Shown: positions 19,366-44,228, numbered from the stretch's first letter. The stretch: 64,000 bases of DNA from Methanobacteriota archaeon (GCA_963787255.1 CAWBCJ010000029.1:672001-736000), one strand, 5' to 3'. Notes: generated from the sequence alone by a model not told the origin. Program-made: numbers and translations.

Positions 19366-19393
19366 ATAACTATCGTTATATAACAATTGTAAT
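19366..19393. promoter_or_regulatory. Two abutting copies of 14-bp palindromic operator (ATAACTATCGTTAT, ATAACAATTGTAAT) overlapping the TATA box of the GMC gene
   Basis: Read directly; TTTATATA at 19361-19368 overlaps the first copy. Confidence 0.75.
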
Positions 19394-19418
19394 AAAATTT
19401 TTTTAATTAATTTATAGA

Positions 19419-20756
19419 GTGAAATTTATGACTTTTGACGTTGCAGTAATCGGAACAGGCGCTGGAGGCGCCACAGCAGCAAGGGAATTATCAAAAAAAG
19501 GACTTAAGGTCTTAATTTTGGAAAAAGGAAAACGCCACAAAACAGGTACATCCGCAAATCACATTAAAAACATCCCTATAAAACTAAAAATGGATTTAAT
19601 AGATAAAAATGAAGAAAATCTTGATTTTATCCAGCTTCCTGCAGAATTGATGTACATAGAAGATGTTGGAGGTACAACTCCAGTATCTCTTGCCAACGCA
19701 TGTTATGCTTGTAGTACATGTTATGCAAATTCTGCAACAACACAATTCCAAATCCACGACCTTGATCTCTTTAAAGAACTAATAGAAGCAAGTGGAGATT
19801 TAAAAGTTAACCCGTTTCCAGCAGATTTAATGGGACCTGCAACACGTAAAATAGTAGAATGTGGAGAAAGCCTCGGATTTTTCATGGAGCCTATGCCCAA
19901 ATTCATTGATTTTTCTAAATGTGATAGCTGTGGGCAGTGTATTCAAGGTTGTACAAGGGATGCAAAATGGGACTCAACACACTTTGTAAATGAAGCAGTA
20001 GCAAAAGGTGCAACTTTAATTTCAGATTTTAAAGTCACAAGAATTATCTCAGAAAATGGAGATGTAAAAGGAATAGAAGGCATATTTGGAGATAAAACAA
20101 AATATTTTGAAGTTAAAAAAGTTATAATTGCTTCAGGAGCATTAAATACTCCTCAAATTTTAAAAAATTCAGGAATTACAAAAAATGTAGGTGAAGGCTT
20201 ATTCTGTGATCTTTTTATAACCATTGGAGGATATTTAAAAGATATAAATTATTATAAAGAAATTCCTATGGGCGTAAAATCAGAATTCGGACCTTATTTT
20301 TTATCACCTCACTTTTCAAATCAGCTGATTGAATTACTGGAAAATAAGGGAGTCAACGCTAATCCTGAAGATATCGTTGGAATAATGGTTAAAATAGCAG
20401 ATGAAGCTAATGGAAAGGTTAATGAAGATAAATCAATTGAAAAAACACTTACTAAAAGAGATTTAGACCTTCTAAAAGAAGGATATGAAAAGAGCGTTAA
20501 AATACTTGTTGAAATGGGTGTAGATCCATCTTCTATAGTTGCAACGCCTATAAGAGGTGCACATCCTGGTGGAACCGCAGCAATGGGTAGTGTAGTTGAT
20601 AATAACTTAGAAACTGAAATTAAAGGACTATATGTAGCTGATGCCAGTGTAATTCCCCAAGCCCCGGGAAGACCTCCAATTTTAACTATAACTGCACTGG
20701 CAAAAAGACTTGCTAAAAACATCTCTAACGGCATGAAAGTAAAAATAGAGAACTAA
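19419..20756 (+). CDS. GMC-family FAD oxidoreductase with Cys-rich Fe-S motifs
   Basis: IGTGAGG...LILEKG, VGGTT, CYACSTC, CDSCGQCIQGC, ASGALNTPQIL, HPGGTAAMG, VADASVIP...PPILTI. Confidence 0.85.
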   Translation: MKFMTFDVAVIGTGAGGATAARELSKKGLKVLILEKGKRHKTGTSANHIKNIPIKLKMDLIDKNEENLDFIQLPAELMYIEDVGGTTPVSLANACYACSTCYANSATTQFQIHDLDLFKELIEASGDLKVNPFPADLMGPATRKIVECGESLGFFMEPMPKFIDFSKCDSCGQCIQGCTRDAKWDSTHFVNEAVAKGATLISDFKVTRIISENGDVKGIEGIFGDKTKYFEVKKVIIASGALNTPQILKNSGITKNVGEGLFCDLFITIGGYLKDINYYKEIPMGVKSEFGPYFLSPHFSNQLIELLENKGVNANPEDIVGIMVKIADEANGKVNEDKSIEKTLTKRDLDLLKEGYEKSVKILVEMGVDPSSIVATPIRGAHPGGTAAMGSVVDNNLETEIKGLYVADASVIPQAPGRPPILTITALAKRLAKNISNGMKVKIEN

Positions 20757-20770
20757 AAAAACGTTTATAT

Positions 20771-21808
20771 GTGATGAAAATGGAAAATATAACCGAAAAT
20801 AGGTATTCAAGACAGGCAATTTTACACAACATTGGTAAAGAGGGTCAGGAAATACTGGGGAAAAGTCATGTTATCATTATAGGATGTGGGGCACTGGGAA
20901 CAGTGGCTGCAAATAATCTTGCGCGTGCAGGAGTAGGTAAAATCTCCATTTTAGACAGGGATTTTGTTGAACTAAACAACCTTCAGCGCCAGATGCTCTT
21001 CGATCAAAATGACGTAGGGGAACCAAAAGCAATAGCGGCAACCAGAAAACTGCAGTTAATTAATTCAGATATAGAAATAGTTCCCTTAGTTAAGGATTTA
21101 AACCATACTAACATCGATGAAATAATTAAGGATACAGATCTTGTTCTGGACGGAACAGATAACATCCAGACAAGAATGCTCCTTAACGATGTTTGCGTAA
21201 AGGAAAAAATTCCCTGGATTTACACCGGAGCAATTGGAACATCGGGCATGACAATGAATATTCTTCCGGATGCTGCATGTATCCGCTGTCTATATCCAAG
21301 CATTCCTAAACCCGGATCACTTCCAACATGCGATACAATGGGAGTTTTAAACACTGTAACAGTCATTATGGGTTCAATGGCCAGTACAGAGGCGATAAAA
21401 ATACTTCTTGGAAAAGCAAAACCTCGAAATAAACAGGACAGCAGCTTAATAGTCTATGATGCATGGAATAACTCATTCGACGAAATACTTGTAAGAAAAA
21501 ACGAAGAATGTGCATGCTGCATAGATGGAAGTTTCGATTATTTAAATGCTGAAGATAGAGAAGTTATTAGTTCGCTTTGCGGTCGAAATGCTATCCAAAT
21601 AACTCCTGCAGATGCAAAAGAGTTAGATTTACACGAATTAGCATCTAAACTTGAACATTTAGGCAATATCAAATGTGCAGATTTTATATTACTTTTTAAG
21701 ACCCAAAATTATGAAATATCTGTATTTCGTGATGGAAGAGCAATAATTAAAGGAACTGATAGTGAAAAAGTGGCAAGATCAATTTATGCAAGATTTATCG
21801 GTACTTAA
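20771..21808 (+). CDS. MoeB/ThiF E1-like adenylyltransferase
   Basis: RYSRQ, IGCGALG, DRDFVELNNLQRQ, DGTDN, CIRC, TCDTMGV, CACC, C-terminal LCGRNAIQI domain. Confidence 0.9.
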   Translation: MMKMENITENRYSRQAILHNIGKEGQEILGKSHVIIIGCGALGTVAANNLARAGVGKISILDRDFVELNNLQRQMLFDQNDVGEPKAIAATRKLQLINSDIEIVPLVKDLNHTNIDEIIKDTDLVLDGTDNIQTRMLLNDVCVKEKIPWIYTGAIGTSGMTMNILPDAACIRCLYPSIPKPGSLPTCDTMGVLNTVTVIMGSMASTEAIKILLGKAKPRNKQDSSLIVYDAWNNSFDEILVRKNEECACCIDGSFDYLNAEDREVISSLCGRNAIQITPADAKELDLHELASKLEHLGNIKCADFILLFKTQNYEISVFRDGRAIIKGTDSEKVARSIYARFIGT

Positions 21809-21918
21809 TATTTCAAAATATGAGATAATGTGTTCATTTAGGAAATTGGTTTTAATATATATACTTAAAGGGTCAAGTATTATAAGATCAAATTTTCGAG
21901 GAATTATTTTAATTTAAT

Positions 21919-22542
21919 ATGCGAGGTACAAACGAGATGAAAACCCTTAAAATAGGTGAAAATACCTTTGAACTTGCAGAAATCATTATTAATGACTTAA
22001 AAGCATCAGAAAATATTGGAATTCTTAAATGCATCCAGTGCGGTATGTGCACATCAGTCTGTCCCGCAGCAAGACATACAGACTATGACTCACGAGAACT
22101 GGTTAAAAGAGTTCTAGATAAAGACGAAAGTTTAATTTCAGACCCCATAATTTGGGATTGTTTTTACTGCTACACCTGCCACAGCGTATGCCCTGTAAAT
22201 AATAGCCCATGCGAAATAAACCAAATAATAAGACAGAAAGCTATTGATAATGGAAACGGAAAATCCAAAATAGCCCCTTTTTCGGCATACGGCGATAGTT
22301 TCCTTGAATTTGGACTTGGAGCAATTCCAAACGATTTCTTCGACGACTTGTTAAAAGATTATGGAAAGGAATGGCTTGAATTAAAGATTAATTTGGAGGA
22401 TATCCGGGAAGAATTAGGTCTTGGCCCGATATTACTGCCAGAAAAGGATGTAAATGATATTAACAAAATTTTGGAGAAAACAGGATTCACTAAAAGACTG
22501 GATAGAATAAGGCGGTGTAAAGATGAAGAAAATACCAGATAA
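21919..22542 (+). CDS. hdrC: Heterodisulfide reductase subunit C-like 2x[4Fe-4S] protein
   Basis: KCIQCGMCTSVCP and WDCFYCYTCHSVCP; overlaps the hdrB start. Confidence 0.85.
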   Translation: MRGTNEMKTLKIGENTFELAEIIINDLKASENIGILKCIQCGMCTSVCPAARHTDYDSRELVKRVLDKDESLISDPIIWDCFYCYTCHSVCPVNNSPCEINQIIRQKAIDNGNGKSKIAPFSAYGDSFLEFGLGAIPNDFFDDLLKDYGKEWLELKINLEDIREELGLGPILLPEKDVNDINKILEKTGFTKRLDRIRRCKDEENTR

Positions 22543-23470
22543 GGAAATTTTACTCTTTAAAAGCTGCCTTGTAAATGTTGAATATCCGGGAGTAGAATCA
22601 TCAACCAAATTTCTATTCGATAAACTGGGAATAGAATACATTACAAGTGAAAGACAGTCCTGCTGCACTGGTTTAGGACATTACGCGGATTTATTTGACC
22701 AATTTTCAACAACTACACTTTCAGCAAGAAACTTTGGAATTGCAAGAGAAGAAGAACACAAAAATATAGCCACACTATGTGCTACCTGTTATGCAATACT
22801 AAAAAAATCAGCCAATATTTTAAATAAAAAAGAAGATGTTAGAAAAAAGGTAAATACGATTTTCGACGATACAGAAATTCCTAATTTGAAATATAATGCA
22901 GATGATATGGATTCAAGAGATAATATTTTCCATGTAGCTGAAATTCTTTATAATAAGGCCGAAGAAATTGAAAATCTTGTAGAAATAGATTTATCAGGCT
23001 TTAAAGTGGCTGCACATCACGCCTGCCATTATTGTAAAGTTCATCATAATGATACTATTGGAAATGTGAGAAATCCAATGGTTATAGAAACCCTTGCTAA
23101 AGCATGCGGTGTGGAAACAGTGGACTGGTATGATCGCAAAACAAATACCTGTGGTAACGGCTTCAGGCAGCGTTACATGAATAAAGATTTATCATTTTCC
23201 ATAACAGCAGAAAAGCTGCTTAGTTTAAAGGAGAATGAAGTTGATATTTTACTTCACATGTGTCCAAATTGTCAGCTGCAATTTGACAGAAACCAGAAAG
23301 TCATTGGAGAATCAATGGATACTGAATTCAATATTATGTGCCTTAACATTTCTCAATTTATAGCTCTTGCTCTTGGAGCCGACCCTTACAAAGTTGTAGG
23401 GATTCAGACACACTCAGTTCCTATAGAACCTATTTTAAAGAAAATAAAGCAGATTAACCTATGTTTATGA
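22523..23470 (+). CDS. hdrB: Heterodisulfide reductase subunit B-like protein (divergent CCG domains)
   Basis: SCLV, SCCTG, LCATC, HHACHYC, NTCGNG, MCPNCQLQFD. Confidence 0.85.
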   Translation: MKKIPDKEILLFKSCLVNVEYPGVESSTKFLFDKLGIEYITSERQSCCTGLGHYADLFDQFSTTTLSARNFGIAREEEHKNIATLCATCYAILKKSANILNKKEDVRKKVNTIFDDTEIPNLKYNADDMDSRDNIFHVAEILYNKAEEIENLVEIDLSGFKVAAHHACHYCKVHHNDTIGNVRNPMVIETLAKACGVETVDWYDRKTNTCGNGFRQRYMNKDLSFSITAEKLLSLKENEVDILLHMCPNCQLQFDRNQKVIGESMDTEFNIMCLNISQFIALALGADPYKVVGIQTHSVPIEPILKKIKQINLCL

Positions 23471-23479
23471 GGTAAGACA

Positions 23480-25855
23480 TTGAATAACTATAATTTTTCA
23501 AGATATGCACCAAAAAGCAGTATAGATATTGGTGTTTTTTTATGCCGTTGTGGAGGAAATATTTCCGATACAGTTGACATTGAAAGGCTTAAGTCTTCAA
23601 TAGACGCTAAAGTAGTGAAGGATTTCGAAAATCTCTGCTCAATCAAGTGCCAGAAGAATATCAGGGATATTATACTGGAAGAAGATTTAGACCGGGCAGT
23701 AATTGCAGCATGTTCACCGATTACTCACGAAAAAACCTTTAGAAACCATGTAGCTCCTCTAAATCCATATCTTTTAGAAATGGCCAATATAAGAGAACAG
23801 TGTTCATGGGTGCATTCTGATGTGGATAAGGCAACGGAAAAGGCAATATCACTTACGGGTGCTGCCATTGAACGGGTTAAATACGCCAGACCACTGGACA
23901 CAATAGTTCGAAAAACCAAAAAAAGCGTCGCTGTAATAGGTGGTGGAATATCTGGAATAACTACCGCGCTTTCAATGGCAAAACAGGGCATTAAAGTATA
24001 CATAATTGAAGAAAAGCCTACAGTCGGTGGAAATATGATAAAAATAGGCAAAGTATTCTCTCCAGAAAAACTTGCAGAAGAATGTGCGCTGTGTCTTTTC
24101 AATCCACTGATAAATGAGGCAGTACAGCATAAAAATATTGAAATGATCACCAATGCAGAGCTTAAATCATCCGAAAGGAAAGCTGGAAACTTTAACTTGA
24201 TTGTCGAAAGAAAACCAAGTTTTGTTAAGGAAGATAGATGTACAGCATGCGGTAACTGTGCGGAAGTCTGTCCAGTGGATGTTCCAAATGAATGGAACGA
24301 AAAATTGATGCTGAGAAAGGCTATTTACAAACCGTTCCCGCAGTCAGTTCCTGACGTATACACAATTGATGAAGAACACTGTATTAAGTGTGGAAAATGC
24401 CAGAAAGTCTGTACAATGGATGCTATTAATCTTTCGATGAAAGGGGAAATTATGCCTCTTAACGTTGGTTCTGTGGTTATAGCCACTGGCCATAAAGGAT
24501 TTAACCTTACAAAACGTCCTGAATATGGATATGCAAGATATGATGATGTAATAACTCAAATGGAGCTTGCGAGGATAATGGGGGTTAATGGACCGACAAA
24601 TGGTAAATTACTCCAACCTTCAACTGGTAAAATTCCAAGAAGAGTGGTTATGGTTCAATGCGCAGGTTCCAGGGACGAAAAGCCTGAAGGAAAACGATAC
24701 TGTTCAAAAGTTTGCTGCATGGTGGCTTTAAAGCATGCAAACTTTATCAAACGTTACTATCCAGATACAGAAGTTATAATCTGTTATACGGATATGAGAA
24801 CCCCGGGAATGTATGAAAATTATTTTAGACATGCACAATCAAAGGAGATTAAACTAATAAGGGGAAGACCTGGAGAAATAGCTAAGAAAGGGGAAAATCT
24901 CGTTGTCAGAGTTGAAGATACTTTGAAAGGGGAACAATTGGAAATAGAAACTGACATGGTTGTTTTATCTGAGGCAATGGAGCCTTCAGAGGGAACATTA
25001 AAAGTAGCAGAAACATTGAATGTCGGTCTTACCGAAGATCTCTTCGTAAAAGAGAAACATCCAAAGATAAAGCCAGTTAGCACAGATATAGAGGGAATCT
25101 ATGTTTGTGGAACTGCACAGGGTCCAAAAGATATTACTGATAGCGTTTCCCAGGCAAACGCAGCGGCATCTAAGGTTTCAGAAATTATGAATGGGGGATT
25201 AGAGATAGAACCGACCATAGCAGTTATTGACCCTTCCAACTGTCAAATCTGTGGGGACTGTGTAACAGCATGTAAATATAAAGCTATTTACATGCAAGAT
25301 GAGCGTATATCAGTTGATGCTATTGCCTGTACTGGCTGTGGAATATGTATGTCCAAATGTAAGCATGAAGCAGTTGAAATTATGGGCCAAACAGATAGTC
25401 AACTGTATGCAATGATTTCTGGTATGTTGAAGGGCAAAAAAGATGGTGAAAGGAGAATACTGGCATTTGTAGATTATATAGGCTACGTAGCATCTGATAA
25501 CATAGGAATAAACAGGATATCCTATCCACAATCAGTTAGAATCATTAGAATTTCATCAATTAACCGTTTAATGCCGAAACATATTATATATGCATTTGAA
25601 AACGGCGCAGATGGAATATTTTTGGGTGAATATCCTGATGATATAATGTATCCGAGTATTCAAGAAAAAGTGCAACAATTCCGCTCTGCACTTATAAAAA
25701 ATAGTATAGATCCAGATAGATTGATGTATTACAAGGTTTACGCACCGTACTTTAGAGGATTGGCCAATAAATTCTATGAATTTGATAAACAGGTTAGTAA
25801 TGCCCTTGATAAGCTTGAAGCGGTGTTATACAAAGCTTCTTCTAAAGATTTATAA
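23480..25855 (+). CDS. hdrA: Heterodisulfide reductase subunit A-like flavoprotein fused to a Cys-less MvhD-like domain
   Basis: GVFLCRCGGNI, ACSP, NIREQCSWVH, IGGGISG, inserted 2x[4Fe-4S] domain, QCAGSRD...YCSKVCC, QGPKDI, C-terminal ferredoxin, then RILAFVDYIG...VRIIRISSINR...GADGIFLGE. Confidence 0.88.
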   Translation: MNNYNFSRYAPKSSIDIGVFLCRCGGNISDTVDIERLKSSIDAKVVKDFENLCSIKCQKNIRDIILEEDLDRAVIAACSPITHEKTFRNHVAPLNPYLLEMANIREQCSWVHSDVDKATEKAISLTGAAIERVKYARPLDTIVRKTKKSVAVIGGGISGITTALSMAKQGIKVYIIEEKPTVGGNMIKIGKVFSPEKLAEECALCLFNPLINEAVQHKNIEMITNAELKSSERKAGNFNLIVERKPSFVKEDRCTACGNCAEVCPVDVPNEWNEKLMLRKAIYKPFPQSVPDVYTIDEEHCIKCGKCQKVCTMDAINLSMKGEIMPLNVGSVVIATGHKGFNLTKRPEYGYARYDDVITQMELARIMGVNGPTNGKLLQPSTGKIPRRVVMVQCAGSRDEKPEGKRYCSKVCCMVALKHANFIKRYYPDTEVIICYTDMRTPGMYENYFRHAQSKEIKLIRGRPGEIAKKGENLVVRVEDTLKGEQLEIETDMVVLSEAMEPSEGTLKVAETLNVGLTEDLFVKEKHPKIKPVSTDIEGIYVCGTAQGPKDITDSVSQANAAASKVSEIMNGGLEIEPTIAVIDPSNCQICGDCVTACKYKAIYMQDERISVDAIACTGCGICMSKCKHEAVEIMGQTDSQLYAMISGMLKGKKDGERRILAFVDYIGYVASDNIGINRISYPQSVRIIRISSINRLMPKHIIYAFENGADGIFLGEYPDDIMYPSIQEKVQQFRSALIKNSIDPDRLMYYKVYAPYFRGLANKFYEFDKQVSNALDKLEAVLYKASSKDL

Positions 25856-25887: not shown

Positions 25888-26506
25888 CTACGATTTTTCA
25901 TGGATTGGAAGTGTAAAATAAAAAGTCGAACCCTTAACCAACTCTGATTCCACCCAAACACGACCACCATGGCGATCAATAATTCTTTTTACAATTGAAA
26001 GTCCAATTCCAGTTCCTTGATATTCTTCATTTGTGTGGAGCCTTTGGAATATGGTGAAAATTTGATCTTGATATGGGGAATTTATTCCAATTCCATTATC
26101 TTCTTGATCCTCTGCTAAAGCTTGAAAGAATAAATCAATGGGTCTTCTAAAACCATGAGGTTCTGAAGGTTTAATAAGGCCTAATACACCATTTACAATT
26201 CCTATGTCATTATTTGGGGGGATGACATACACTTTATTTGGTTTAACTGGCATGATTATCTTGAATTTCAAGTACTTCCATATCAGTATATCTTGCAATT
26301 AATTCTGCCATAGTGCTTTTATGTGTGGGATCTTAGATGTTGAATCAAAACAAATCCCATACCTGTATCTACTGAGGCATATTACTAAATAATTTCTCTA
26401 AAGCTTCCAGCCCACCTGCAGATGAACCAATACCTACTATGGGAAATTTGCCTTTTTCTTTGGAATTGACTTTTGATTTATTTAGAGTTTTATTCTGATT
26501 TTCCAC
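25888..26506 (-). pseudogene. Remnant of a CheB/CheR-type sensor histidine kinase: CheB N-terminus joined to a HATPase C-terminus by internal deletion
   Basis: FPIVGIGSSAGGLEAL...IQHL.PTHKS...VYVIPPN...[15 protein letters not shown] directly followed by EDNGIGI...FQRLH...[13 protein letters not shown]...GSTFYFTLP; also frameshifted. Confidence 0.8.
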
Positions 26507-26754
26507 ATTAATTCCCCTTTAAGCTTAATTTGAATTAATTAGCTTCATTTAAACCTTTTTAGTGAATTGGATAAATAATTGAAATTTAATAAATTATTAT
26601 ATGTTATAATTCAACTGATTAATAATAGTATTCTAAGTAAAAAATAGAGTTATAAACAAATTTTAAACTATTTAGGCTAGATATGAACATTATTTAGTAA
26701 GATTAAGGATTTCATTTAATAATGGCTCATTATGCATGAAAGTTTAATTAGGCA

Positions 26755-27135
26755 ATGATTATTATTAACAATTTTTTTATAATTATTGAAACATATAGTA
26801 TATTCATGCCTCAAAAAGATTATAAAAAAATAATGGAAGAAAGCAACAAGCAGAAAAAAATCGAAGAAGAATTAAATAAAACTCGTATTAGTATAATTAG
26901 GACCATTAAAGACAGGAAAAGAGTTGAAATGGAATATTTGGATGCAGTAAAAAAACAAATGGGATACTGGAAAAGCCAAATAGAAAATACTGATCCTGAA
27001 AAAGATAAAGAAAGATATAATGTAATTAAAAAGAATATTGAAATGGAAAAAGCACATATTAAACAAATTCAAGATGAATTAAATAGAATAAACGAAGAAC
27101 TTAAAATGGCAAATGAATATCAAAAAATTAAATAA
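26755..27135 (+). CDS. Small charged coiled-coil hypothetical protein (likely start ATG 26806)
   Basis: Lys/Glu-rich helical ORF; no recognisable motif. Confidence 0.55.
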   Translation: MIIINNFFIIIETYSIFMPQKDYKKIMEESNKQKKIEEELNKTRISIIRTIKDRKRVEMEYLDAVKKQMGYWKSQIENTDPEKDKERYNVIKKNIEMEKAHIKQIQDELNRINEELKMANEYQKIK

Positions 27136-27173
27136 ACCATCAATAACTAATTATATTAACTATATTGGATAAT

Positions 27174-28116
27174 TTATATTGGATAATAATGGGTCGGCTC
27201 AGGGTGAACTTTTTTAATAAATTGTGTATTAAAAATATTTTCTTCTTTTAAATTTCCCTGCATGTAACCCAATTCATTTAATATAGGGATAAATTTGAGT
27301 GTAGATTCAATATACTCTTTTGAAATGCTTGCACAGTATTTTGGAGACACATTATACGTTTTAAGCACAAAATCTTTACTAACTACTCCAACTTCTTTTA
27401 AAACAATCTCTGCTGCTTTTTCAGGCTGTGTTCTTATTAAATTGGAAGCATCTTCGTGGGCTTTAAGGAAATCTATTATAAATTCTGGTGATTCATTGAT
27501 TAATTCTTCTTTTACAACTATTCCATAGCTTGGATTGTATGGCCAGAGTTTATTTGGAGGAATTACAACTTTAGAATCAAATCTGTTTGAAATAACTGTT
27601 GCAAGGGAAGGTGTTCCAACACCAGCAGCAATTTTACCCTCATCTATTGCATCGGGGATAAAATCTGCCCAATGGAAAATTTTCTAATGTTTATATTAAA
27701 ATCTTTGGTAATTTCATGTATAATTACATCGTGAATGCACCCTTTAGTTGGAGTTCCAATAGTCTTACCTTCAAACTGCTTTAAAACAGCTTCTAAACTT
27801 CCCAATTCCTCAAAAGATTTATAGAATTTGGGAGCAACCATTACAGTGCCTTCTACATGCCCTCCTCCGATGCATTTAATTTTTAAGCCATTTTCAATTC
27901 CTATCATAACTGGAGGAAGACCTATATAACCCACATCAATGTTTTCAGATTTGAATGCTTCTATCATTGCAGGTCCTGTTGCAAATAAAGACCATTTTAA
28001 ATCGTAATCATTTAAATATTTGGTAAATTACTATTTTTTAAGATAAATGATGTGTGATATATTGTTGAAAGGTAACCTATACGGATTTTAATTCCTCCTT
28101 TTTCTTTACATTTCAT
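27174..28116 (-). CDS. SsuA/TauA/NMT1-like solute-binding-fold protein without signal peptide; two apparent frameshifts
   Basis: IRIGYLSTIYHTSF...FATGPAMIEAF...DVGYIGLPPVMIG...GGHVEGT...GCIHD...WPYNPSYGIVV...FLKAHEDA...SPKYCASI. Confidence 0.75.
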
Positions 28117-28119
28117 AAA

Positions 28120-28133
28120 TTAACAATTGTTAT
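28120..28133. promoter_or_regulatory. Palindromic operator TTAACAATTGTTAT immediately upstream of the solute-binding-fold gene
   Basis: Read directly; 4 nt from start codon at 28116. Confidence 0.7.
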
Positions 28134-28164
28134 ATTTCAATAAAATAAAAAAAAAAAGGTATTT

Positions 28165-28440
28165 CTAGCCACCAGCTATAGTCTGGAAGATTACAATTTC
28201 ATCATCATCTTTCACTTCGCTTTCAAGGCCTCCTCCAGATTGTGCATCTTCTCCATTAACGAGAATTTTCATATAATCTCTTAATTCACCATTTTTATCA
28301 AATAAAGCATCTTTAAATTCATTTCCATACTTTTCAGTTAAAATATCAATTAAATCTGCAATATTTCCATTGTGATCAATATTTACAGATCTTTCTCCTG
28401 TGATATCTCTAAAACGTGCTAAAAACTTAATTTCTACCAT
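28165..28440 (-). CDS. MoaD/CysO/SAMP-like ubiquitin-fold sulfur carrier
   Basis: 91 aa, VEIKFLARFRDITG...ILVNG...C-terminal IAGG. Confidence 0.9.
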   Translation of the reverse strand: MVEIKFLARFRDITGERSVNIDHNGNIADLIDILTEKYGNEFKDALFDKNGELRDYMKILVNGEDAQSGGGLESEVKDDDEIVIFQTIAGG

Positions 28441-28553
28441 AATATGTCTCCTGATACGTTTAAATTTAAAAATATTTATTAATATGATTTATTTTATATT
28501 TAAATCAATATTGGTCTATTTATAATCTAACTTTTAAGGTTAACTTTTGCTCT

Positions 28554-28567
28554 ATAACTATTGTTAT
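28554..28567. promoter_or_regulatory. Palindromic operator ATAACTATTGTTAT between the divergent sulfur-carrier and hydrolase genes
   Basis: Read directly. Confidence 0.7.
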
Positions 28568-28719
28568 AATCCAGGTTATAAATTTTACTCATGAACATAG
28601 ATTCTATTGTTAGTGCTCCTGATTTTTTTGATACTGGATAAGCAAAAATTAAGATCATTATTTTAGCATGAGTAAAGTTATTACAAACAAAATATAACTT
28701 ATTAATATAAAGAACTGTA

Positions 28720-29697
28720 ATGGATGTGAAAAATATGACCCGTAAGATGGAATTGGAAAATGAAGTGTTGATACACGAGGACAAGGTCATTCGTCGTGAA
28801 ATAAGTTTTCCCAGCCAAAATGTACAGCTTAAAGGCTGGATTTATTTACCTGCAGATAGGGCGAGAAAGAAAAGCCCAGGGATAGTAACAGCCAACGCTT
28901 TAACGGCGGTCAAAGAGATTACATTACCGGGCTATGCCGAACGCTTTGCAGCAGCGGGTTTCGTAACTCTGGTATTTGACTACAGATTTTGGGGTGAAAG
29001 CGAAGGAGAACCCCGCAACCAGATAATACCCTACGAAATGCAGCAAGACCTGAAGAATGCCATCACATGGCTCGCTGAACAGCCAGAAGTTGATGCAGAT
29101 CGCATAGGAGGATGGGGTGTCTCTTTGGGTGGTGCACACATGCTTTATCTATCTGCATTCGAACGCCGGCTCAAAGCTGTAGTGGCCACGGCCACATCGG
29201 TTAATGGTATTGATACTTCAGAAATGATGATGGGAAAAGAAGCCATGCAGCAAATGATGCTCCAGCTGGCTCAGGATCGGGTGATGAGATATAAAACCGG
29301 CGCGCCTGCCACCTATAAAACTGCCTGGGGAAAATTTGGCGAAGATGTTCTATTCCCGGTGGAAGAGGCTCTGGATTTCTACATGAATGCTAAAAACACC
29401 ATAGCCCCAAACTTTGAAAATCGCGTCACTGTTCAGTCCATGGAGAATTTGAACGAATACAACCCAGACTTTGCCATCCACATGGCATCGCCTACTGCGG
29501 TACTTATTGTGCATGCTGAGCACGATGTTATACCTGTAGAGTTGGTACGTGATGTGTATGAGCGTGCCGAGGAGCCCAAGAAACTTGTGGTGAAAGACTG
29601 TAAACACACGGACCTTTATGATAAGGAGCCATGGATTACAGAATCATCAGATGAAGCTATTGGATGGTTTAGAAAATATTTAGTGAGTGTACCATGA
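28720..29697 (+). CDS. Alpha/beta hydrolase (YcjY/peptidase S15-like), visibly GC-richer than flanks
   Basis: FDYRFWGESEGEPR, DRIGGWGVSLGG nucleophile elbow, HAEHD, HTDLYD. Confidence 0.85.
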   Translation: MDVKNMTRKMELENEVLIHEDKVIRREISFPSQNVQLKGWIYLPADRARKKSPGIVTANALTAVKEITLPGYAERFAAAGFVTLVFDYRFWGESEGEPRNQIIPYEMQQDLKNAITWLAEQPEVDADRIGGWGVSLGGAHMLYLSAFERRLKAVVATATSVNGIDTSEMMMGKEAMQQMMLQLAQDRVMRYKTGAPATYKTAWGKFGEDVLFPVEEALDFYMNAKNTIAPNFENRVTVQSMENLNEYNPDFAIHMASPTAVLIVHAEHDVIPVELVRDVYERAEEPKKLVVKDCKHTDLYDKEPWITESSDEAIGWFRKYLVSVP

Positions 29698-29895
29698 ACT
29701 GGCCTTTTTCACTGGTTTTTGGAGCATTTAAATAGTTTATGTATTGGTTGACTAAATATAATCTTTAAATCCTCAAATTAATTAATAATTTATGGGGTGG
29801 TTTAAATTATTTTAATTGACTGAATCTTTAAATAATTTATTTTTACAAAACTGTTATATATTCACGATTGTTATAAATATTGGTAGGTGATTTAA

Positions 29896-30294
29896 ATGGT
29901 AATGACAGAAGAAATGATGGATGCAGTTGAAAAGGATAATGTAGTATTTTTTGCAACTGCAACTAAAGAAGGAGTGCCTAATGTTGTCCCAATTGGATTT
30001 GCAAGGCCAATTGACAATAAAACAATCATGATTGTGGACAATTACTTGAATAAGACTCGTAAAAATCTTGAAGATAACCCAAAAGCAAGTTTAGTACCAA
30101 GAGATGCTTCAAAGTGCCCTTATCAATTCAAAGGAACAGTTGAAATCTTAACTTCTGGAAAAATATTTGATGATGCAGTAGATTGGGCAACAAGTGTAAT
30201 GAGCAAACTCGCGCCTAAAGCAGCAGTTATACTAAACGTGGAAGAGATTTATACAGTGCAACCAGGTCCTGATGCAGGTTCAAAAGTGGATTAA
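29896..30294 (+). CDS. Pyridoxamine 5'-phosphate oxidase-like FMN-binding split-barrel protein
   Basis: FATATKEGVPNVVPI, DNYLNKTRKNLEDNP, YQFKG, EEIYTVQPGPDAG. Confidence 0.85.
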   Translation: MVMTEEMMDAVEKDNVVFFATATKEGVPNVVPIGFARPIDNKTIMIVDNYLNKTRKNLEDNPKASLVPRDASKCPYQFKGTVEILTSGKIFDDAVDWATSVMSKLAPKAAVILNVEEIYTVQPGPDAGSKVD

Positions 30295-30376
30295 TTTTTA
30301 AAATTATTTTTATTTTTCTTAAATCTAAAATAAGATGTATGGTTTAAAATAAAATTTTAATTAAGAAATTTTTAAG

Positions 30377-30733
30377 GTGATTTTAATATCAGCAAGAGTA
30401 GCTATTGCAAGTAGCGATGGAAAGTTTGTAAATCAGCATTTTGGTAGAGCGCAGCAGTTTTTAATTGTAGATATTAATGATGACGGCAGTTATGAATTTT
30501 TAGAAATTAGAGAGAATACTCCTTCATGTCATGTTGAAGGACATGATTCTTCAATTGAAGATACATTAGATTTAATTTCTGACTGTGATGGAGTATTAGT
30601 AAGTCAGGTTGGTCCTGGAGCAGCCGATAAGTTAATAGAAAGGGGAATTCAGCCCATAATAATACCAATGTTAATAGATGAGGCTATAAAGAAGGTTTAT
30701 TCGTTAATGCAGGAAAAAGATGATGAAAATTAA
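30377..30733 (+). CDS. NifB/NifX-family Fe-S/metallocluster-binding protein
   Basis: RVAIASSDGKFVNQHFGRAQQF, DCDGVLVSQVGPGA. Confidence 0.85.
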   Translation: MILISARVAIASSDGKFVNQHFGRAQQFLIVDINDDGSYEFLEIRENTPSCHVEGHDSSIEDTLDLISDCDGVLVSQVGPGAADKLIERGIQPIIIPMLIDEAIKKVYSLMQEKDDEN

Positions 30734-30761
30734 TGGAACTAAAATTTTTTAATCACATAAT

Positions 30762-30882
30762 ATAACGATCGTTAATTTTATATATGATGTTCTTTACTAA
30801 ATGAATATAACTATAGTTATATTATGGCATCCTCAGCCAATAAAATGTATAATCTGTAACAATGTTATATAACTATAGTTAT
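30762..30882. promoter_or_regulatory. Cluster of operators upstream of cysK: 30762-30775 ATAACGATCGTTAA, 30807-30820 ATAACTATAGTTAT, 30869-30882 ATAACTATAGTTAT (plus 13-bp GTAACAATGTTAT at 30856)
   Basis: Read directly. Confidence 0.8.
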
Positions 30883-30937
30883 ATATTACATAAAAAACAA
30901 TAGAAAAAATAGATATAGTATTACAATGGTGAGAAAT

Positions 30938-31926
30938 ATGGTAAAAATACCAGAATTAAAAAGAGGAATAGCAAATAATGTAACAGAACTGATAGGAAAT
31001 ACTCCTCTTGTAAGGTTAAACAGAATTACCGAAGGGACAGACGCAGAGGTTGTAGCAAAGCTTGAATCATTCAACCCTTTAAGCAGCGTAAAAGACAGAA
31101 TAGGAGTTGCAATGATAGAATACGGGGAAGAACAGGGACTTATTAATAAAGATTCAGTTCTTAGTAGAACCTACAAGTGGAAATACCGGTATTGCACTTG
31201 CATTTGTTGCAGCAGCTAAAGGATACAAACTTATTCTTACAATGCCCGATACAATGTCCATAGAAAGAAGAAAGTTGCTTGCACTTCTCGGTGCCGAAAT
31301 TGTATTAACTCCTGGTGCAAATGGAATGAAAGGGGCTGTAGCCAAAGGCAGAAGAACTATCCGAAAGTATACCTAATGCAGTAATGCCTCAACAGTTTAA
31401 AAACCCTGCAAACCCAAAAATCCACAGGGAAACAACTGCACATGAAATATTAAGAGATACAGATGGTAAAGTAGATATATTAGTTGCAGGTGTAGGTACT
31501 GGTGGAACAATAACAGGTATTGCAGAAGTTTTAAAAGAAAAAAACCCTGATTTTAAGGCAGTAGCAGTCGAACCAATATCCTCTCCAGTATTATCTGGAG
31601 GAAAACCCGGACCGCATAAAATTCAGGGAATAGGGGCAGGATTTGTTCCTGATATTCTTAGAACGGATTTAATAGATGAAATCATTCAAGTAAAGGACGA
31701 AGACGCTGCAAGTACATTATTAAGACTTGCAAGAGAAGAAGGAATACTTGCAGGTATATCATCAGGGGCTGCAACATGGGCTGCCATTGAACTTGCAAAA
31801 AGAGAAGAAAATGAAGGTAAAAGGATAGTAGTAATTCTACCAGATACAGGAGAAAGATACTTAAGTATGGACTGGGTATTTGAAGAAGTTTTCCATACCT
31901 ACAATCAAAAGGATTTCTCCAACTAA
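30938..31926 (+). CDS. cysK: Cysteine synthase A (O-acetylserine sulfhydrylase), two apparent frameshifts
   Basis: [23 protein letters not shown], (EPTSGNTG in shifted frame), [37 protein letters not shown]. Confidence 0.9.
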
Positions 31927-31994
31927 GGTCATAGAATATCCATTTATTTCTATTTTTATTTTTCAACGAAAATTCCTGAAATGGAGGCGTGCAA

Positions 31995-32710
31995 ATGTTT
32001 GAACGAGTAAAAGAAGACATAGAAATGGTAATGTTAAGAGATCCGGCTGCAAGAAGCAAGTTAGAAATATTTTTTACATATCCTGGACTTCACGCCATAT
32101 GGCTTTATAAAATAGCTAACTGGTTATGGATTCGCAATCATCATTTTTACCGGTGGCTTAATTTCGGCTATTACTCGCTTTTTTACAGGAATAGAGATAC
32201 ATCCTGGAGCAAAAATAGGAAGAAGAGTATTCATCGACCACGGAATGGGTGTCGTAATTGGAGAAACTGCAGAAGTTGGAGATGATGTTTTAATTTATCA
32301 GGGTGTTGTTCTGGGTGGAACAAGCCTTGGAAAGGAAAAAAAGGCACCCTACCATTGGAAGTGGGGTTGTAATAGGTTCTGGAGCTAAAGTTATTGGTAA
32401 TATTGAAATAGGAGACTGCTCGAAGATAGGAGCAGGTTCTGTAGTCTTAAAATCAGCTCCAATGGGGTCTACAGTTGTTGGAATTCCTGGACGAAATGTA
32501 AAAGAAGAGCGTAAATGCGCTATAGATCTGGATCATGGAGAGTTACCAGATCCTGTTGCAGAAGTGATTAAACTTATTTTAGACCGCCAAGATGAAATGG
32601 AAAGCCAGATAAGAGCATTAGGAATATCAACATCTACCATAAAAATGAATGAACTTTTTGAGAGAAAATCAGAAATTGAAGAAATATTCTCAGAAGGTGC
32701 AGGCATATAA
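31995..32710 (+). CDS. cysE: Serine O-acetyltransferase, apparent frameshifts
   Basis: [36 protein letters not shown] (shifted frame), [22 protein letters not shown]; C-terminus FSEGAGI. Confidence 0.9.
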
Positions 32711-32848
32711 TATCATTTTTTTATTTTATTAGTAATTATATTAGCCTTAAAATTACATTTTAAGTTCATAAATTAGCTTTAAAACATAAATAAACAGTAA
32801 TAAACTAAAATTTAATAAAATAATGTAAGCAAAAAAATATAAGTTAAT

Positions 32849-32862
32849 ATAACACTAGTTAT
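32849..32862. promoter_or_regulatory. Palindromic operator ATAACACTAGTTAT upstream of the HTH regulator (autoregulation candidate)
   Basis: Read directly. Confidence 0.7.
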
Positions 32863-32966
32863 ATTAATTCAATTTAAAGAGTTTATTTAAATTTTACAAA
32901 TTCAGTTTAAAAGAGGGAAATAATCAATTGATAACATTTAAATTTCCAAATTATAATTAAACGGGC

Positions 32967-33404
32967 GTGATAGAAGTGAGACCACCATGTGAAATAGTTG
33001 TATGGTACGTAATTCCAAGTATACGGTCTGAATTGGCTAAAGAATTACTTAATTTAGGTATGAAACAAAAACAAATTTCTGAACTGCTGGATATTACTCA
33101 ACCTGCAGTATCACAGTATATAAGTGATAAAAGGGGACACGGAATTAAATTTGATGAAAATACTCAAAACATGATCAAAACTTTTGCAAGAGATTTAATG
33201 GAACAAAATCTGGAACAAGGGAGATGTAATACGCGAATATGTGAGATATGCAAGCACGTTAAAGCAGAAGAGGTTGTATGTCAACTGCATAAAGAAAAAG
33301 ATAACATTCCTGCAGGTTGTAATGCATGTATGGGATCAAAAAGGAATATAGATACCTGGATTACTGTATCTAATGGGTTCTTTTCTATTTATCCTCTAAA
33401 TTGA
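32967..33404 (+). CDS. XRE-like HTH transcriptional regulator (COG2522 / ThiR-N-terminal-like) with Cys-rich C-terminus
   Basis: RPPCEIVVWYVIPSIRSELAKEL...GMKQKQISELLDITQPAVSQYISDKRG; CEIC, CQLH, CNAC. Confidence 0.85.
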   Translation: MIEVRPPCEIVVWYVIPSIRSELAKELLNLGMKQKQISELLDITQPAVSQYISDKRGHGIKFDENTQNMIKTFARDLMEQNLEQGRCNTRICEICKHVKAEEVVCQLHKEKDNIPAGCNACMGSKRNIDTWITVSNGFFSIYPLN

Positions 33405-34768
33405 TGCCTAATATCTCTTAATCTGCTTCTTATTTCATCTGCAAGCTCATAATTCTTATTTTCACGGAGCTTTTCCCTTACATCAACCAGAATATTGACT
33501 AATTCATCATTGCGAATCTCCTTTGCAGGATTCAACTGAAAAATTAAGTCCCAAAATATCTCCGAATTCATTAAGTAATTCTTTTATTTCTTTAAATACA
33601 TTTTTAGAGATATTTTCTTCACTTATTCCTTTATTTATTTCTCTTATGAAATTAAAAAGTGCTGAAAGTGCAATAGGTGTATTAAAATCATTATCCATTG
33701 CATCCAAGAATTCATTTTTGGTATTTTCCAGCATTTTAAGGTATTCATTATTAGAATCACTATTTTTAGTTATATCCATTTCAAGGAATTCATCAACAGT
33801 TTCCATTAATTTATAAATTCTTTTCAAGCTATTCTGTGACTGCTGTAGAGCTTCATCGCTGAAGTCAATTGGACTTCTGTAATGAGTGGAAAGAACAAAA
33901 AATCTAAAGACCTGCGGGTCATATTCAGTGAGTAATTCTTCAATTGTAATAAAATTTCCAAGTGATTTGGACATTTTCTCCCCGCTGACATTTAAAAAGC
34001 CCGTATGCATCCAGTATTTAACCATTGGCTTTTTACCTGTTGCAGATTCCATCTGCGCGATTTCTGCCTCATGATGCGGGAAAATAAGATCTAATCCTCC
34101 ACCGTGAATGTCAAATTGGCCTCCAAAATAGGTTTCAGATATTGCAGTGTCTTCAATGTGCCATCCCGGTCTTCCATCGTCCCCATGGAGAAGCCCATGA
34201 TGGTTTGTCATCTCTCTTTTTCCAGAGTGCAAAATCTCCAGGATTTCTTTTTGTAGTATCTGGATTAACTCGATGAACATTTAGGTCTTCAATATTTCTA
34301 TTTGAGAGCTTTCCAAAGTCTTCAAAACGAGATTCATCAAAATAAATGCCAGTTGGAGGTTTCATAGGCAAAACTTTTCTTTATCAATGTTTGAATTTGA
34401 TTAATAATTTCGTTAAGGTGTTCCAGTGCCCTTGCATAATAATTAACGTTAGTTACACCTAATAATTCCATATCATGGAAATAGAGTTCTTCAAATTCCT
34501 TAGCAAGTTTTAATGGTTCAACACCAAGTTCATTTGCTCTTTTAATGATTTTATCGTCAATATCAGTGATATTTTGTAAATAAAAAATGCTGTACCCTTT
34601 ATATTTTAGATATCTTGCAATAATATCAAAAGCAATATAGGTTCTTCCATGACCAATATGTGATTTATCGTAAACTGTTGGCCCACATACAAACATTTTT
34701 ATTCTGTTTTCGTTTATAGGCGTGAATTCTTCCTTTTTACGGGTCATTGTATTGTATACTTTTATCAT
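33385..34768 (-). CDS. cysS: Cysteinyl-tRNA synthetase (class I), several apparent frameshifts
   Basis: VCGPTVYD..HIGH, NITDIDDK, DFALWK, GRPGWHIE, DIHGGGLDLIFPHHEAE, KMSKSLGN, DNDFNTP, ADEIRSRL. Confidence 0.92.
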
Positions 34769-35029
34769 AGGGCATCAAACTCGAAATTACTTAGAATTTC
34801 TTAAATTTGTTATAATCATCTTATATATGAAAATTAATATTGAAGTTGGATTTATATTCTTGTATTTTTAAAAGATGGTCAATTTTTATAATAAACTACA
34901 TTTGTTCAGTTTTTAAGATAAGATTTATTATAATAGATTATAATTAAATTAATTTAGAAAAATATCTAATTATTATTGATTATTTTCTCCTTCTGCAGCG
35001 AACAAACGAATTTTGTGAGCGAGGACTTT

Positions 35030-35166: not shown

Positions 35167-35180
35167 TTAACAATTGTTAT
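35167..35180. promoter_or_regulatory. Palindromic operator TTAACAATTGTTAT overlapping the TATA box of the tRNA-Cys promoter
   Basis: Minus strand reads TTTATATAACAATTGTTAA, 30 nt upstream of the mature tRNA 5' end. Confidence 0.75.
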
Positions 35181-35334: not shown

Positions 35335-35348
35335 ATAACAATTGTTAT
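35335..35348. promoter_or_regulatory. Perfect palindromic operator ATAACAATTGTTAT upstream of metY
   Basis: Read directly; follows TTAAATAT. Confidence 0.75.
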
Positions 35349-39679: not shown

Positions 39680-39716
39680 AAATAAAGTTAATTTATGTGT
39701 ATTAGAGGTTGATTAT

Positions 39717-40127: not shown

Positions 40128-40142
40128 ATTCTTTTTTATAAT

Positions 40143-40580: not shown

Positions 40581-40646
40581 AATATCTTTTTTTAAAATAA
40601 GAGTAAAATAGAAAAAAGAAGTAGGCATTGAATCCTTTCTTGTGTA

Positions 40647-41462: not shown

Positions 41463-41483
41463 AGTTAATCCTCGTCAATTTAC

Positions 41484-41511
41484 TTAACAATAGTTATATA
41501 ACAATTGTTAC
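41484..41511. promoter_or_regulatory. Two abutting operators (TTAACAATAGTTAT, ATAACAATTGTTAC) directly downstream of the thi4 TATA box
   Basis: Minus strand TTTATAAGTAACAATTGTTATATAACTATTGTTAA. Confidence 0.78.
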
Positions 41512-41591
41512 TTATAAATTTTATGAATGTTCCCTAAAAAACAAAAATAGATTATAAATAATAAAAAAAAGGTAAAAAGAGAAATTAGAGC

Positions 41592-42743: not shown

Positions 42744-42940
42744 TTAAATTTCTCCTTTGGATTTTTTAAAATTTCATTTATTTAATTTAACGATTTACTT
42801 TTTAGTTCGTAATATTCCATTTATTTTAGTAAAATGATGAAATGAGCATTAAAAATGTTATTGATATTATTAGTCAAATTTATGTGTTATATCTTGTAAA
42901 TAGTTGATATTTTTTGGGGGTAAATAAAAAAATAATAAGT

Positions 42941-42965
42941 AAAGGTTAATAACTTTTTAACCTTT
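42941..42965. terminator. Hairpin AAAGGTTAA...TTAACCTTT just downstream of the cystathionine lyase/synthase stop
   Basis: Inverted repeat followed on the minus strand by T-rich runs. Confidence 0.4.
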
Positions 42966-42976
42966 TAGAATTGATT

Positions 42977-44110
42977 TTAAGCCCTCGAAAGTCCTTTGCT
43001 CAGGTCTTCAATTAAATCAGCAGAATCTTCCAGTCCAACGGAAAGCCTGATAAGGTCATCTGTAATTCCTGCACTTTTTCGAGCTTCTTCTTTCATTGAA
43101 GCGTGGCTCATTGTTGCGGCGTGTTCAACAAGTGAATCTGCTCCACCTAATGACTCCGCAAGGGAGAATATTTCTAAACTGTTTAGGAAATTTCTCAAAT
43201 CACCTTTGAGTTTAAATGATACTATTCCTCCAAATCCTTTCATCTGTTTTTTAGCTATTTCATGTCCTTTATGGGATGTAAGGCCGGGATAAAATACTTC
43301 ACTTACTTTAGGGTGTTCTAGTAGATATTCTGCTACTTCGTGAGCATTTGTGGCATGTTTGTCCATTCTAAGGGGGAGTGTTTTTAAACCTCTAAGCACT
43401 AACCATGAATCAAATGGTGCTGCATTTGTTCCAAGTCCGTTAAGGTTGAAATGAACTTTTTCTGCTAATTCTTCTGTTGTTGTTATTACAGCGCCGCCAA
43501 TAACATCTGAATGTCCGTTTATGTATTTAGTTGTTGAATGCATTACAATGTCGATTCCAAAGTCAATTGGCTTTAAAAAGTAGGGACTGGAGAATGTATT
43601 GTCGGTTACAGTAAGTAAATTGTGCTCTTTTGCGATTTTTGAGATTAACGCAAGGTCTGTAATGTTTAGAAGTGGATTTGAAGGTGTTTCTACCCATATG
43701 AGTTTAGTATTGGATTTTATTGCATTCTTTATTTTTTCCTCATCGTCAAGTCTTATAAATGTGAATTCAATTCCAAATTTGGTCATTATTTCTGAAAATA
43801 ACCTGAAAGTACCTCCGTAAAGGTCATCACATGCAATTACGTGATCACCAGCTTTTAGAATATGTATTACGGTTGTAATTGCGGCCATTCCACTTGAAAA
43901 TGCAAATCCTGCGTTTCCTCCTTCAAGATCTGCAAGGGCATCTTCCAGGGCGCTTCTTGTAGGATTACTTGTTCTTGAATAATCGTGCTTTTTGGGTTTT
44001 CTATAGTCATCAAAGATGAATGTTGACGTTTGCCAGATTGGTGTTGATATTGCACCGGTTGCAGGGCACGGCTGCCTGCCTGAGTGCACTGATTTTGTAT
44101 TAAACTTCAT
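42977..44110 (-). CDS. Cystathionine gamma-lyase/synthase family PLP enzyme (MetB/MetC/MccB)
   Basis: GAISTPIWQTSTF, YSRTSNPTR, SSGMAA, ETPSNP, DNTF, STTKYINGHSD, AESLGG, RLSVGLE. Confidence 0.9.
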   Translation of the reverse strand: MKFNTKSVHSGRQPCPATGAISTPIWQTSTFIFDDYRKPKKHDYSRTSNPTRSALEDALADLEGGNAGFAFSSGMAAITTVIHILKAGDHVIACDDLYGGTFRLFSEIMTKFGIEFTFIRLDDEEKIKNAIKSNTKLIWVETPSNPLLNITDLALISKIAKEHNLLTVTDNTFSSPYFLKPIDFGIDIVMHSTTKYINGHSDVIGGAVITTTEELAEKVHFNLNGLGTNAAPFDSWLVLRGLKTLPLRMDKHATNAHEVAEYLLEHPKVSEVFYPGLTSHKGHEIAKKQMKGFGGIVSFKLKGDLRNFLNSLEIFSLAESLGGADSLVEHAATMSHASMKEEARKSAGITDDLIRLSVGLEDSADLIEDLSKGLSRA

Positions 44111-44200
44111 ATTTTCCTCCTTATTCTATAAACATTAAGATTCAACTTTTAAAAAATTCGTATTTAACTCCTGTGGATTTTAAAAAAGCAACATGTTATA

Positions 44201-44228
44201 TTAACAATTGTTATATAACTATTGTTAT
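44201..44228. promoter_or_regulatory. Two abutting operators (TTAACAATTGTTAT, ATAACTATTGTTAT), with a degenerate third at 44188-44199, upstream of the cystathionine lyase/synthase
   Basis: Read directly. Confidence 0.8.

Follow-up and report, generated by a model that had tools for sequence, protein, structure and literature searches.

Methanogens need unusually large amounts of sulfur for their iron-sulfur proteins and cofactors, and in the literature covered here we found no transcription factor for sulfur assimilation in these organisms. The closest described systems serve other ends or other lineages. SurR of the Thermococcales binds the site GTT-N3-AAC; its cue is elemental sulfur, and it controls genes for hydrogenases and sulfur reduction. 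Methanogens have a nitrogen repressor, NrpR, which acts at palindromic operators that follow the TATA box, sometimes in tandem, and a metabolite lifts its repression. ThiR is reportedly an archaeal thiamine regulator in which a DNA-binding domain is fused to a ThiN domain. Among the Firmicutes, CymR together with CysK is the master regulator of cysteine metabolism, and in B. subtilis the pair follows an O-acetylserine logic. Here we analyse a 64-kb stretch of DNA, one strand, from a Methanobacteriota archaeon (the window; coordinates are counted from its start), in which a 14-bp palindrome, WTAAC-N4-GTTAW, recurs between positions 19366 and 44228 in front of genes of sulfur metabolism. We propose that the palindrome is probably an operator through which Methanobacterium and its relatives control a sulfur/cysteine regulon, and that a neighbouring helix-turn-helix (HTH) protein reads it and represses. 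The full-text literature searched, which covers few subscription journals, holds no description of the motif, of the regulator or of a sulfur-assimilation regulon in Methanobacteriales, in agreement with the first-pass annotation of this DNA, which had called the regulon apparently undescribed. The candidate regulator, its kinship with the ThiR domain, the additional targets in relatives and the frameshifts in target genes are new beyond that annotation.

An exact search with WTAACNNNNGTTAW (WTAAC-N4-GTTAW) returned 12 matches in the window, at 19366, 28120, 28554, 30762, 30807, 30869, 32849, 35167, 35335, 41484, 44201 and 44215. Dinucleotide shuffles of the window are expected to yield 0.57 (standard deviation 0.71, largest 2), and none of 100 shuffles reached 12. 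The G+C content of the window is 31-39%, and all 12 exact copies are intergenic, lying in the 10,744 bases that our open reading frame (ORF) calls leave uncovered; this fraction makes up 16.8% of the window and has a G+C content of 24.5%. Markov models trained on this AT-rich intergenic DNA expect 0.23 copies at order 1 (largest 2 of 100 simulations) and 0.28 at order 3 (largest 1). Three further copies, at 19380, 41498 and 29861, carry one mismatch each, and a fourth, at 30856, keeps the half-sites around a 3-base spacer. When the window was scanned with a weight matrix trained only on 79 related loci, with the window itself left out, the top 14 positions (15.5-25.0 bits) were the 12 exact copies plus 19380 and 41498, precisely the strong sites that had first been picked out by eye; 29861, which had been listed with 30856 as weaker, ranked fifteenth at 8.2 bits, and the next best position scored 5.2 bits. 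The same scan of the whole window found no strong site outside 19366-44228, so that the flanks, made up of housekeeping genes, are as clean as they had appeared. Three pairs of copies abut at an offset of 14 bp (19366/19380, 41484/41498 and 44201/44215), which bears out the tandem periodicity described earlier.

The palindrome is shared by relatives. The 79 loci, drawn from contigs of one genome per species and fetched with an alignment of close homologues that included the HTH protein, are mostly from Methanobacterium, with a few Methanobrevibacter- or Methanosphaera-like ones, and their regulators are 55-84% identical. Together (1.19 Mb) they hold 326 exact copies, with at least one copy in 66 of the 79; 286 copies are intergenic by our ORF calls, where 3.4-6.6 are expected, and 40 are nominally coding, where 7.6-9.1 are expected, an excess that stems in part from over-long ORF starts. 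The full consensus over 335 sites is tATAAC-nATn-GTTATa, and even the positions left free by the search pattern are non-random, the central dinucleotide being AT in 89% and the outer flanks T/A in 75%. Varying the spacer of TAAC-Nx-GTTA from N0 to N8 gave 12, 25, 21, 51, 360, 10, 19, 13 and 22 copies; only the 4-base spacer is strongly enriched. The likeness to SurR sites, which also consist of GTT/AAC-like half-sites arranged as a palindrome, is thus limited: the half-site order here is TAAC...GTTA and the spacer is four bases, not three, a difference that had been noted earlier and that the spacer control now makes sharp. SurR and the system described here are both archaeal, tied to sulfur and likely to use cysteines as a switch, but they belong to different protein families and the targets here are cysteine and methionine genes. 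NrpR resembles the present system as a methanogen nutrient regulon with palindromic operators, and differs in nutrient, protein family and operator sequence.

Could the palindromes be non-regulatory, arising for instance as dispersed repeats, as hairpins or terminators, or simply from the AT-rich, TATA-like character of the DNA? The motif is AT-rich, it overlaps TATA-like sequence and its outer bases are themselves TATA-like. We nevertheless consider this explanation barely credible, given that AT-matched models expect fewer than 0.3 copies in the intergenic DNA of the window, that a single spacer length is enriched, that housekeeping promoters in the same loci are free of sites, and that the sites precede genes and do not follow them. 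The hairpin or terminator reading was rejected outright, the hairpins that the palindromes could form having energies of 0 to -4.9 kcal/mol and the Rfam matches being to tRNA only. We hold with high confidence that both the cis-element and the sulfur regulon it marks exist and are conserved.

Conservation before orthologous genes was assessed by counting sites from -90 to +350 bases relative to the ORF start, with loci that hold the gene and its upstream DNA as the denominator. A site precedes cysK in 47 of 54 loci, the MoaD/SAMP gene in 34 of 35, the PNPOx gene in 17 of 21, metY in 12 of 13 and thi4 in all seven, so that sites recur before sulfur genes first recognised with them in the window. 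The NifX-like gene (16/39), the SsuA-like gene (11/18), nitrogenase-like D/K genes (11/12), a PatB-family C-S lyase (6/9), EamA (4/4), a nitroreductase (3/3), NifU (3/13) and nifS (2/17) also carry sites, to differing degrees. From this census the nitrogenase-like genes, the PatB C-S lyase, EamA and the SsuA-like gene would be further targets in relatives. Eleven neighbour families, each present in at least 15 loci, have no site upstream at all; they include asparagine synthase, homoserine dehydrogenase, phosphoglycerate mutase, CTP synthase, peptidase A24 and MurT.

That a tRNA belongs to the regulon, as the first-pass annotation had suggested, is supported as well. In the window and in 16 loci (L002-L014, L016, L062 and L071), tRNA-Cys(GCA) is followed by cysS at a distance of 65-298 bases, and a site lies within 200 bases upstream of the pair in 14 of the 16; for one of the two site-less loci the upstream DNA falls off the contig. 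In 11 of these loci, as in the window, 13-32 bases separate the end of the site from the mature 5' end. The tRNA-Cys and its synthetase gene thus appear to share one sulfur-controlled promoter. In the window, the tRNA gene (35137-35066, minus strand, the sole Rfam match) and cysS (34768-33507, minus strand) are preceded by an operator at 35167..35180 (20.5 bits), which overlaps the TTTATATA box of the tRNA-Cys promoter and ends 30 bases before the mature 5' end.

The protein most likely to read the operator, to judge from gene order and from the sites in front of its own gene, is the candidate HTH protein encoded at 32967-33404 (plus strand; P0001). It has 145 residues in the window and 124-136 in orthologues, which are annotated only as "transcriptional regulator". 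Among 80 copies of the regulator, 68 have cysE as their immediate upstream neighbour on the same strand, and in 58 the three genes cysK-cysE-regulator are colinear; of 53 cysK promoters that could be tested, 50 carry a site, 28 regulator copies have a site of their own within 250 bases upstream, and 60 copies have at least one site among their own, the cysE or the cysK promoter. It is on this conserved row and its operator-bearing promoters that the link between operator and regulator is drawn. In the window the row begins with a promoter module at 30762..30882, comprising operators at 30762, 30807 and 30869, the 3-base-spacer variant at 30856 and the element GGCATCCTCAGCC at 30826; cysK (30926-31926) and cysE (31989-32710) follow on the plus strand, and an operator at 32849..32862 (15.8 bits) lies 104 bases before the regulator gene, as would suit autoregulation. 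If the regulator reads the operator, the pair would give methanogens their first described switch for sulfur supply. The analysis supplies an operator that is both sharp and conserved, together with a definite list of target promoters and a named candidate protein.

Several points weigh against this proposal. The binding of the regulator to the operator is a prediction from sequence. Since the search that gathered the loci used the regulator itself, with peptide patterns covering its recognition helix, the gene-order link and the co-occurrence of regulator and motif are partly built in, and the specificity of the motif is judged from 64 kb plus the 1.19 Mb around one gene. For 20 of the 80 copies of the regulator, the promoters of the regulator, cysE and cysK are all without a site, and 13 of the 79 loci, some of them short and some Methanobrevibacter- or Methanosphaera-like, have no exact site. 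The HTH assignment itself stands right at the threshold (HTH_3, PF01381, residues 24-56, 23.1 bits against a cut-off of 23, E 7.8e-5). About half of the sites lie 80-300 bases before ORF starts, a distance that would suit activation, or else the ORF starts are miscalled. Finally, the regulator tail, cysK, cysE, cysS and the SsuA-like gene are frameshifted in the window, which may mean a decaying circuit or a faulty assembly. The first of these points, the way the loci were selected and the 20 site-less copies would also suit a real operator that is read by a different transcription factor encoded elsewhere, the HTH protein beside cysE having another job. We regard this as unlikely: the regulator keeps its place in the cysK-cysE row and near operator-bearing promoters in the proportions given above, the two half-sites are spaced as expected for a dimeric HTH protein, the 79 loci contain no second recurrent family of DNA-binding proteins, and the domain family reportedly contains regulators of thi4 already (those of the ThiR architecture). 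As a separate observation, two of the loci (L063 and L065) lie on the same contig, so that one genome has two regulator copies; one stands in a cysK-cysE row with operators, and the other beside PNPOx and asparagine synthase in a locus without an exact site.

The regulator family is large and comprises 1,335 clusters at 50% identity (E<=0.001). In Pfam, HTH_3 is the only match to P0001, and NCBIfam gives none; its neighbours in the ESM Atlas are clusters of archaeal proteins, with HTH_3 in 41-50% of their members. The AlphaFold model, which is confident (predicted local distance difference test, pLDDT, 86.7), consists of six helices. A fold search of the PDB with this model gave nothing below E 0.4 (best E 0.42), a single-sequence search of the PDB gave no match, and a profile search of the PDB matched the HTH part only (best 28tn_A, E 9e-8); the Cys-rich half gave no usable match in the ESM Atlas. 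C105-H108-C118-C121 is present in 98 of 117 diverse members. In the same 117, C8, C92 and C95 co-vary: all three occur in 53, none in 32, C95 only in 30, C92 and C95 in 2, and C8 alone in 0. Q8 and Q92 are the common alternative to C8 and C92, and all close orthologues have the Cys triad. HdrR of Methanosarcina and AmzR were also compared and, by their published descriptions, belong to unrelated families.

A single-sequence search for longer, fused relatives returned none, and a profile search returned 13, one of them a ThiN fusion; the others include repetitive HTH arrays and a ligase. The fusion, Halococcoides protein P0275 (profile E 6e-17, ThiN at residues 139-294), has what we take to be the architecture of the archaeal thiamine repressor ThiR. 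In a BLASTP comparison of P0001 with P0275, 133 columns covering the HTH and the Cys-x2-His...Cys-x2-Cys part align at 29% identity (E 1e-15), so that the whole N-terminal domain is homologous. As the family search shows, the DNA-binding domain of ThiR also occurs on its own, in a large family that apparently has at least one other regulatory use. Both systems would have thi4 among their targets, and both regulators are small archaeal proteins expected to act on palindromes. The question then arises whether the window carries a thiamine regulon and not a sulfur regulon, the more so as thi4 has a tandem operator in all seven loci. We judge this highly improbable: unlike ThiR, the regulator here lacks the C-terminal ThiN domain (PF10120) and has the additional Cys triad, which is absent from the Q8-type ThiN-fusion relative; most targets are cysteine, methionine and sulfur-carrier genes, thi4 being the one recurring thiamine target; and in the window the matrix scan assigns no separate operator to thiI. 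A further relative may be recorded here. P0218, a 506-residue metagenomic protein, carries a regulator-like domain of the Q8 type at residues 10-128, joined to a complete cysteine desulfurase of the NifS/IscS type; as a lone cluster representative, it could also be a product of read-through in gene calling.

How the operators are placed bears on the direction of control. At thi4, the typical layout is a TTTATAA or CTTATAT box, the tandem GTAACAATTGTTAT-ATAACTATTGTTAA, 6-22 bases and the ATG (7 of the 8 promoters shown); at PNPOx it is TTATATA, the operator directly after it, about 10 bases, GGTGA and the ATG (10 of the 14 promoters shown, the window's included, where the copy is the degenerate 29861 site); and at tRNA-Cys the promoter AAAGTATTTAT-ATAACAATTGTTAA has the operator overlapping the TATA box. 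The order of TATA-like box, operator or operators, 6-32 bases and then ATG or tRNA holds at thi4, PNPOx, cysK and tRNA-Cys, so that the earlier remark on operators overlapping or following TATA boxes is upheld at these four. Distances of 14 bases between sites occur 36 times in the loci and distances of 28 bases 8 times. An oriented count of TATA boxes was uninformative (112 versus 121 of 206), as the operator itself ends in TATA-like bases and many sites are tandem. An operator over or just after the TATA box is the layout of archaeal repressors, which block TBP/TFB or the polymerase, and the TATA-abutting, often tandem operators fit repression. Some archaeal regulators activate or repress depending on the position of the site, and the regulator could be mainly an activator, or an activator at distal and a repressor at proximal sites; metY (154 bases), the MoaD-like gene (114) and the SsuA-like gene (153) exemplify the many distant sites, and three spaced sites stand in the cysK promoter. 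Against this, the operators at thi4, PNPOx, tRNA-Cys and the proximal cysK position leave little room before the start, and a published title describes ThiN-fusion relatives as repressors; we think activation improbable. As for the dimeric repressor first envisaged for these sites, the dimer agrees with the half-site spacing, and the repressor role is suggested by the layout.

We infer both repression and sulfur status as the signal, and the best-supported model, which we consider likely overall, runs as follows. A regulator of 125-130 residues, consisting of a helix-turn-helix followed by a helical Cys/His-rich domain, would bind as a dimer to the two half-sites, whose centres are 9 bases (about one helical turn) apart, and a second dimer would occupy the abutting copy 14 bases on. 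Because the operators overlap or follow the TATA box, before the start codon or the tRNA 5' end, the bound regulator would keep TBP/TFB or RNA polymerase off the promoter and thereby repress. Under sulfur shortage the regulator would release the DNA, and the genes for using sulfide and scavenging sulfur would rise together: cysK-cysE, metY-metX, the cystathionine lyase, thi4, the MoaD/ThiF-type carriers, the SsuA-like gene, tRNA-Cys-cysS and the regulator itself, joined in relatives by the nitrogenase-like reductases, the PatB C-S lyase and EamA. The co-varying C8/C92/C95 triad would be one candidate sensor, through a metal, an iron-sulfur (Fe-S) cluster or thiol chemistry. Fe-S and thiol sensors such as IscR, SufR and CstR use three or four cysteines to bind a cluster or to switch redox state, and a role of this kind may be considered for the cysteines here.

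A second candidate sensor, confined to the closest clade, would be a C-terminal tail that docks on CysK. Of 120 close homologues, 47, and the regulators of 15 of the 79 loci (L001-L014 and L016), end in an invariant DYCI after a variable linker, in a tail predicted to be disordered; 13 of these 15 loci have an operator 63-108 bases upstream of the regulator, 14 have tRNA-Cys-cysS adjoining, and their CysE ends in GAGI. Other clades of the regulator have His/Cys-rich tails and not DYCI. According to the part of the preprint consulted (bioRxiv 10.1101/2024.09.19.614015), the CysK active site of S. aureus receives the C-terminal peptide of CysE or of CymR, whose last residue is a strictly conserved Ile. 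The final Ile of DYCI recalls these tails, and like CymR the regulator would control cysK, cysE and other cysteine and methionine genes; unlike CymR it is of the HTH_3 type with no Rrf2 match in Pfam or NCBIfam, it is an archaeal and not a bacterial protein, and DYCI is limited to one clade. By this analogy, the DYCI clade may use CysK and O-acetylserine as CymR does. A predicted complex of CysK with the regulator tail (residues 84-132), run without controls, gave a score of 0.25 and a mark of 0.32 and weighs neither way. More ambitiously, and only tentatively, the regulator could be the master sulfur sensor of Methanobacteriaceae, a new stand-alone class built on the ThiR DNA-binding domain that senses through its Cys triad (by Fe-S or persulfide chemistry), with, in the clade of this window, a DYCI-CysK docking convergent with that of CymR and CysK, and that co-regulates cysteine and homocysteine synthesis, thiazole synthesis, sulfur carriers, tRNA-Cys with its synthetase CysRS and, in relatives, nitrogenase-like reductases.

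The remaining sites of the window likewise stand before sulfur genes, and the gene assignments made earlier hold when checked by Pfam and NCBIfam matches, with the refinements that the "solute-binding-fold gene" is SsuA-like and that tRNA-Cys heads a pair with cysS. The tandem pair at 19366..19393 (19366 exact, 25.0 bits; 19380 one mismatch, 15.5 bits) ends 26 bases before the start of a plus-strand row at 19419..25855 that encodes a GMC-type flavoprotein, a ThiF/MoeB E1-like adenylyltransferase and HdrC-like, HdrB-like (CCG) and HdrA/FlpD-like proteins; L007 and L065 likewise have a tandem pair in front of their GMC gene. Together with the MoaD/SAMP-type sulfur-carrier gene (28440-28165, minus strand), this row resembles a sulfur-carrier activation system tied to a heterodisulfide-reductase-like module. 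The operator at 28554..28567 (18.3 bits), 114 bases before the carrier gene, lies in a divergent spacer shared with an alpha/beta-hydrolase gene, and that at 28120..28133 (20.7 bits) lies 153 bases before the SsuA-like gene (27967-27186, minus strand). The degenerate operator at 29861..29874, with a TTCAC half-site, directly follows a TTATATA box before the PNPOx-like (29896) and NifX-like (30377) genes. The operator at 35335..35348 (22.6 bits) stands 154 bases before metY (35503), the gene ahead of metX-CBS (36867). A tandem pair at 41484..41511 separates a TTTATAA box from the start of thi4 (41462-40647, minus strand), which matches the model of sulfide-dependent thiazole synthase at 271.6 bits (cut-off 148.3), and another at 44201..44228 (19.0 and 25.0 bits) lies 91 bases before a cystathionine gamma-lyase/synthase-type gene (44110-42977, minus strand). 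The window also encodes nifS, nifU, a MOSC protein and thiI. For methanogen genes placed under one sulfur signal, such as tRNA-Cys-cysS, the MoaD/ThiF-type carriers and the Hdr-like row, membership in the regulon offers a functional clue.

In relatives the same clue extends to nitrogenase-like genes, of which the window has none. L005 (3838-7716), L011, L012, L014, L019-L024, L054 and L057 carry nitrogenase-like D, K and H genes between the operator module and cysK. These genes fall below every Nif/Vnf/Anf/Cfb cut-off, the nearest being a NifH-like gene at 394.2 against 394.35. A sulfur operator before such genes hints at organic-sulfur cleavage, by analogy with MAR or ISR as described in the portions of the literature consulted; if this is true, sulfur control would assign archaeal nitrogenase-like enzymes to the scavenging of organic sulfur. 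The parts consulted of a 2026 review of nitrogenase-like systems (Chem Rev) do not name an archaeal regulator.

Compared with intact relatives, the copy of the circuit in the window carries frameshifts. Two frameshifts interrupt cysK, two cysE and at least three cysS (the first two being read through +1 frameshifts in the coordinates given here); there is one in the regulator tail after about residue 125, the ancestral DYCI end lying in another frame, one in the SsuA-like gene, at least one in a histidine-kinase remnant, and one each in hemA and a PMT-type glycosyltransferase gene. Those that were aligned at the DNA level with L002 are all +1 insertions outside homopolymers. They fall at 25888-34780, 17253-18454 and 51884-53486, and ten of about twelve lie within 26-35 kb. 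Because hemA is broken in a methanogen, some assembly error is likely. The operators of the window are intact despite the frameshifts nearby.

Two minor elements accompany the operators. GGCATCCTCAGCC, a conserved G+C-rich 13-mer (30826-30838 in the window), stands before cysK in L004-L008 and before the nitrogenase-like genes in L005, L011, L012, L014 and L054; in 10 of 11 copies operators lie about 65 and 19 bases upstream and 31-75 bases downstream of it, and L014 has only the two upstream ones. It may be the site of a second factor or a leader element. The 3-base-spacer variant TAAC-N3-GTTA, represented in the window at 30856-30868, occurs within 60 bases of a normal site in 22 of its 51 instances in the loci. 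In three Methanobrevibacter-like loci that have no 4-base-spacer site, a 3-base-spacer version, TAACTTTGTTA, lies 75-95 bases before cysE (L074 at 7688, L075 at 1091 and L077 at 5850).

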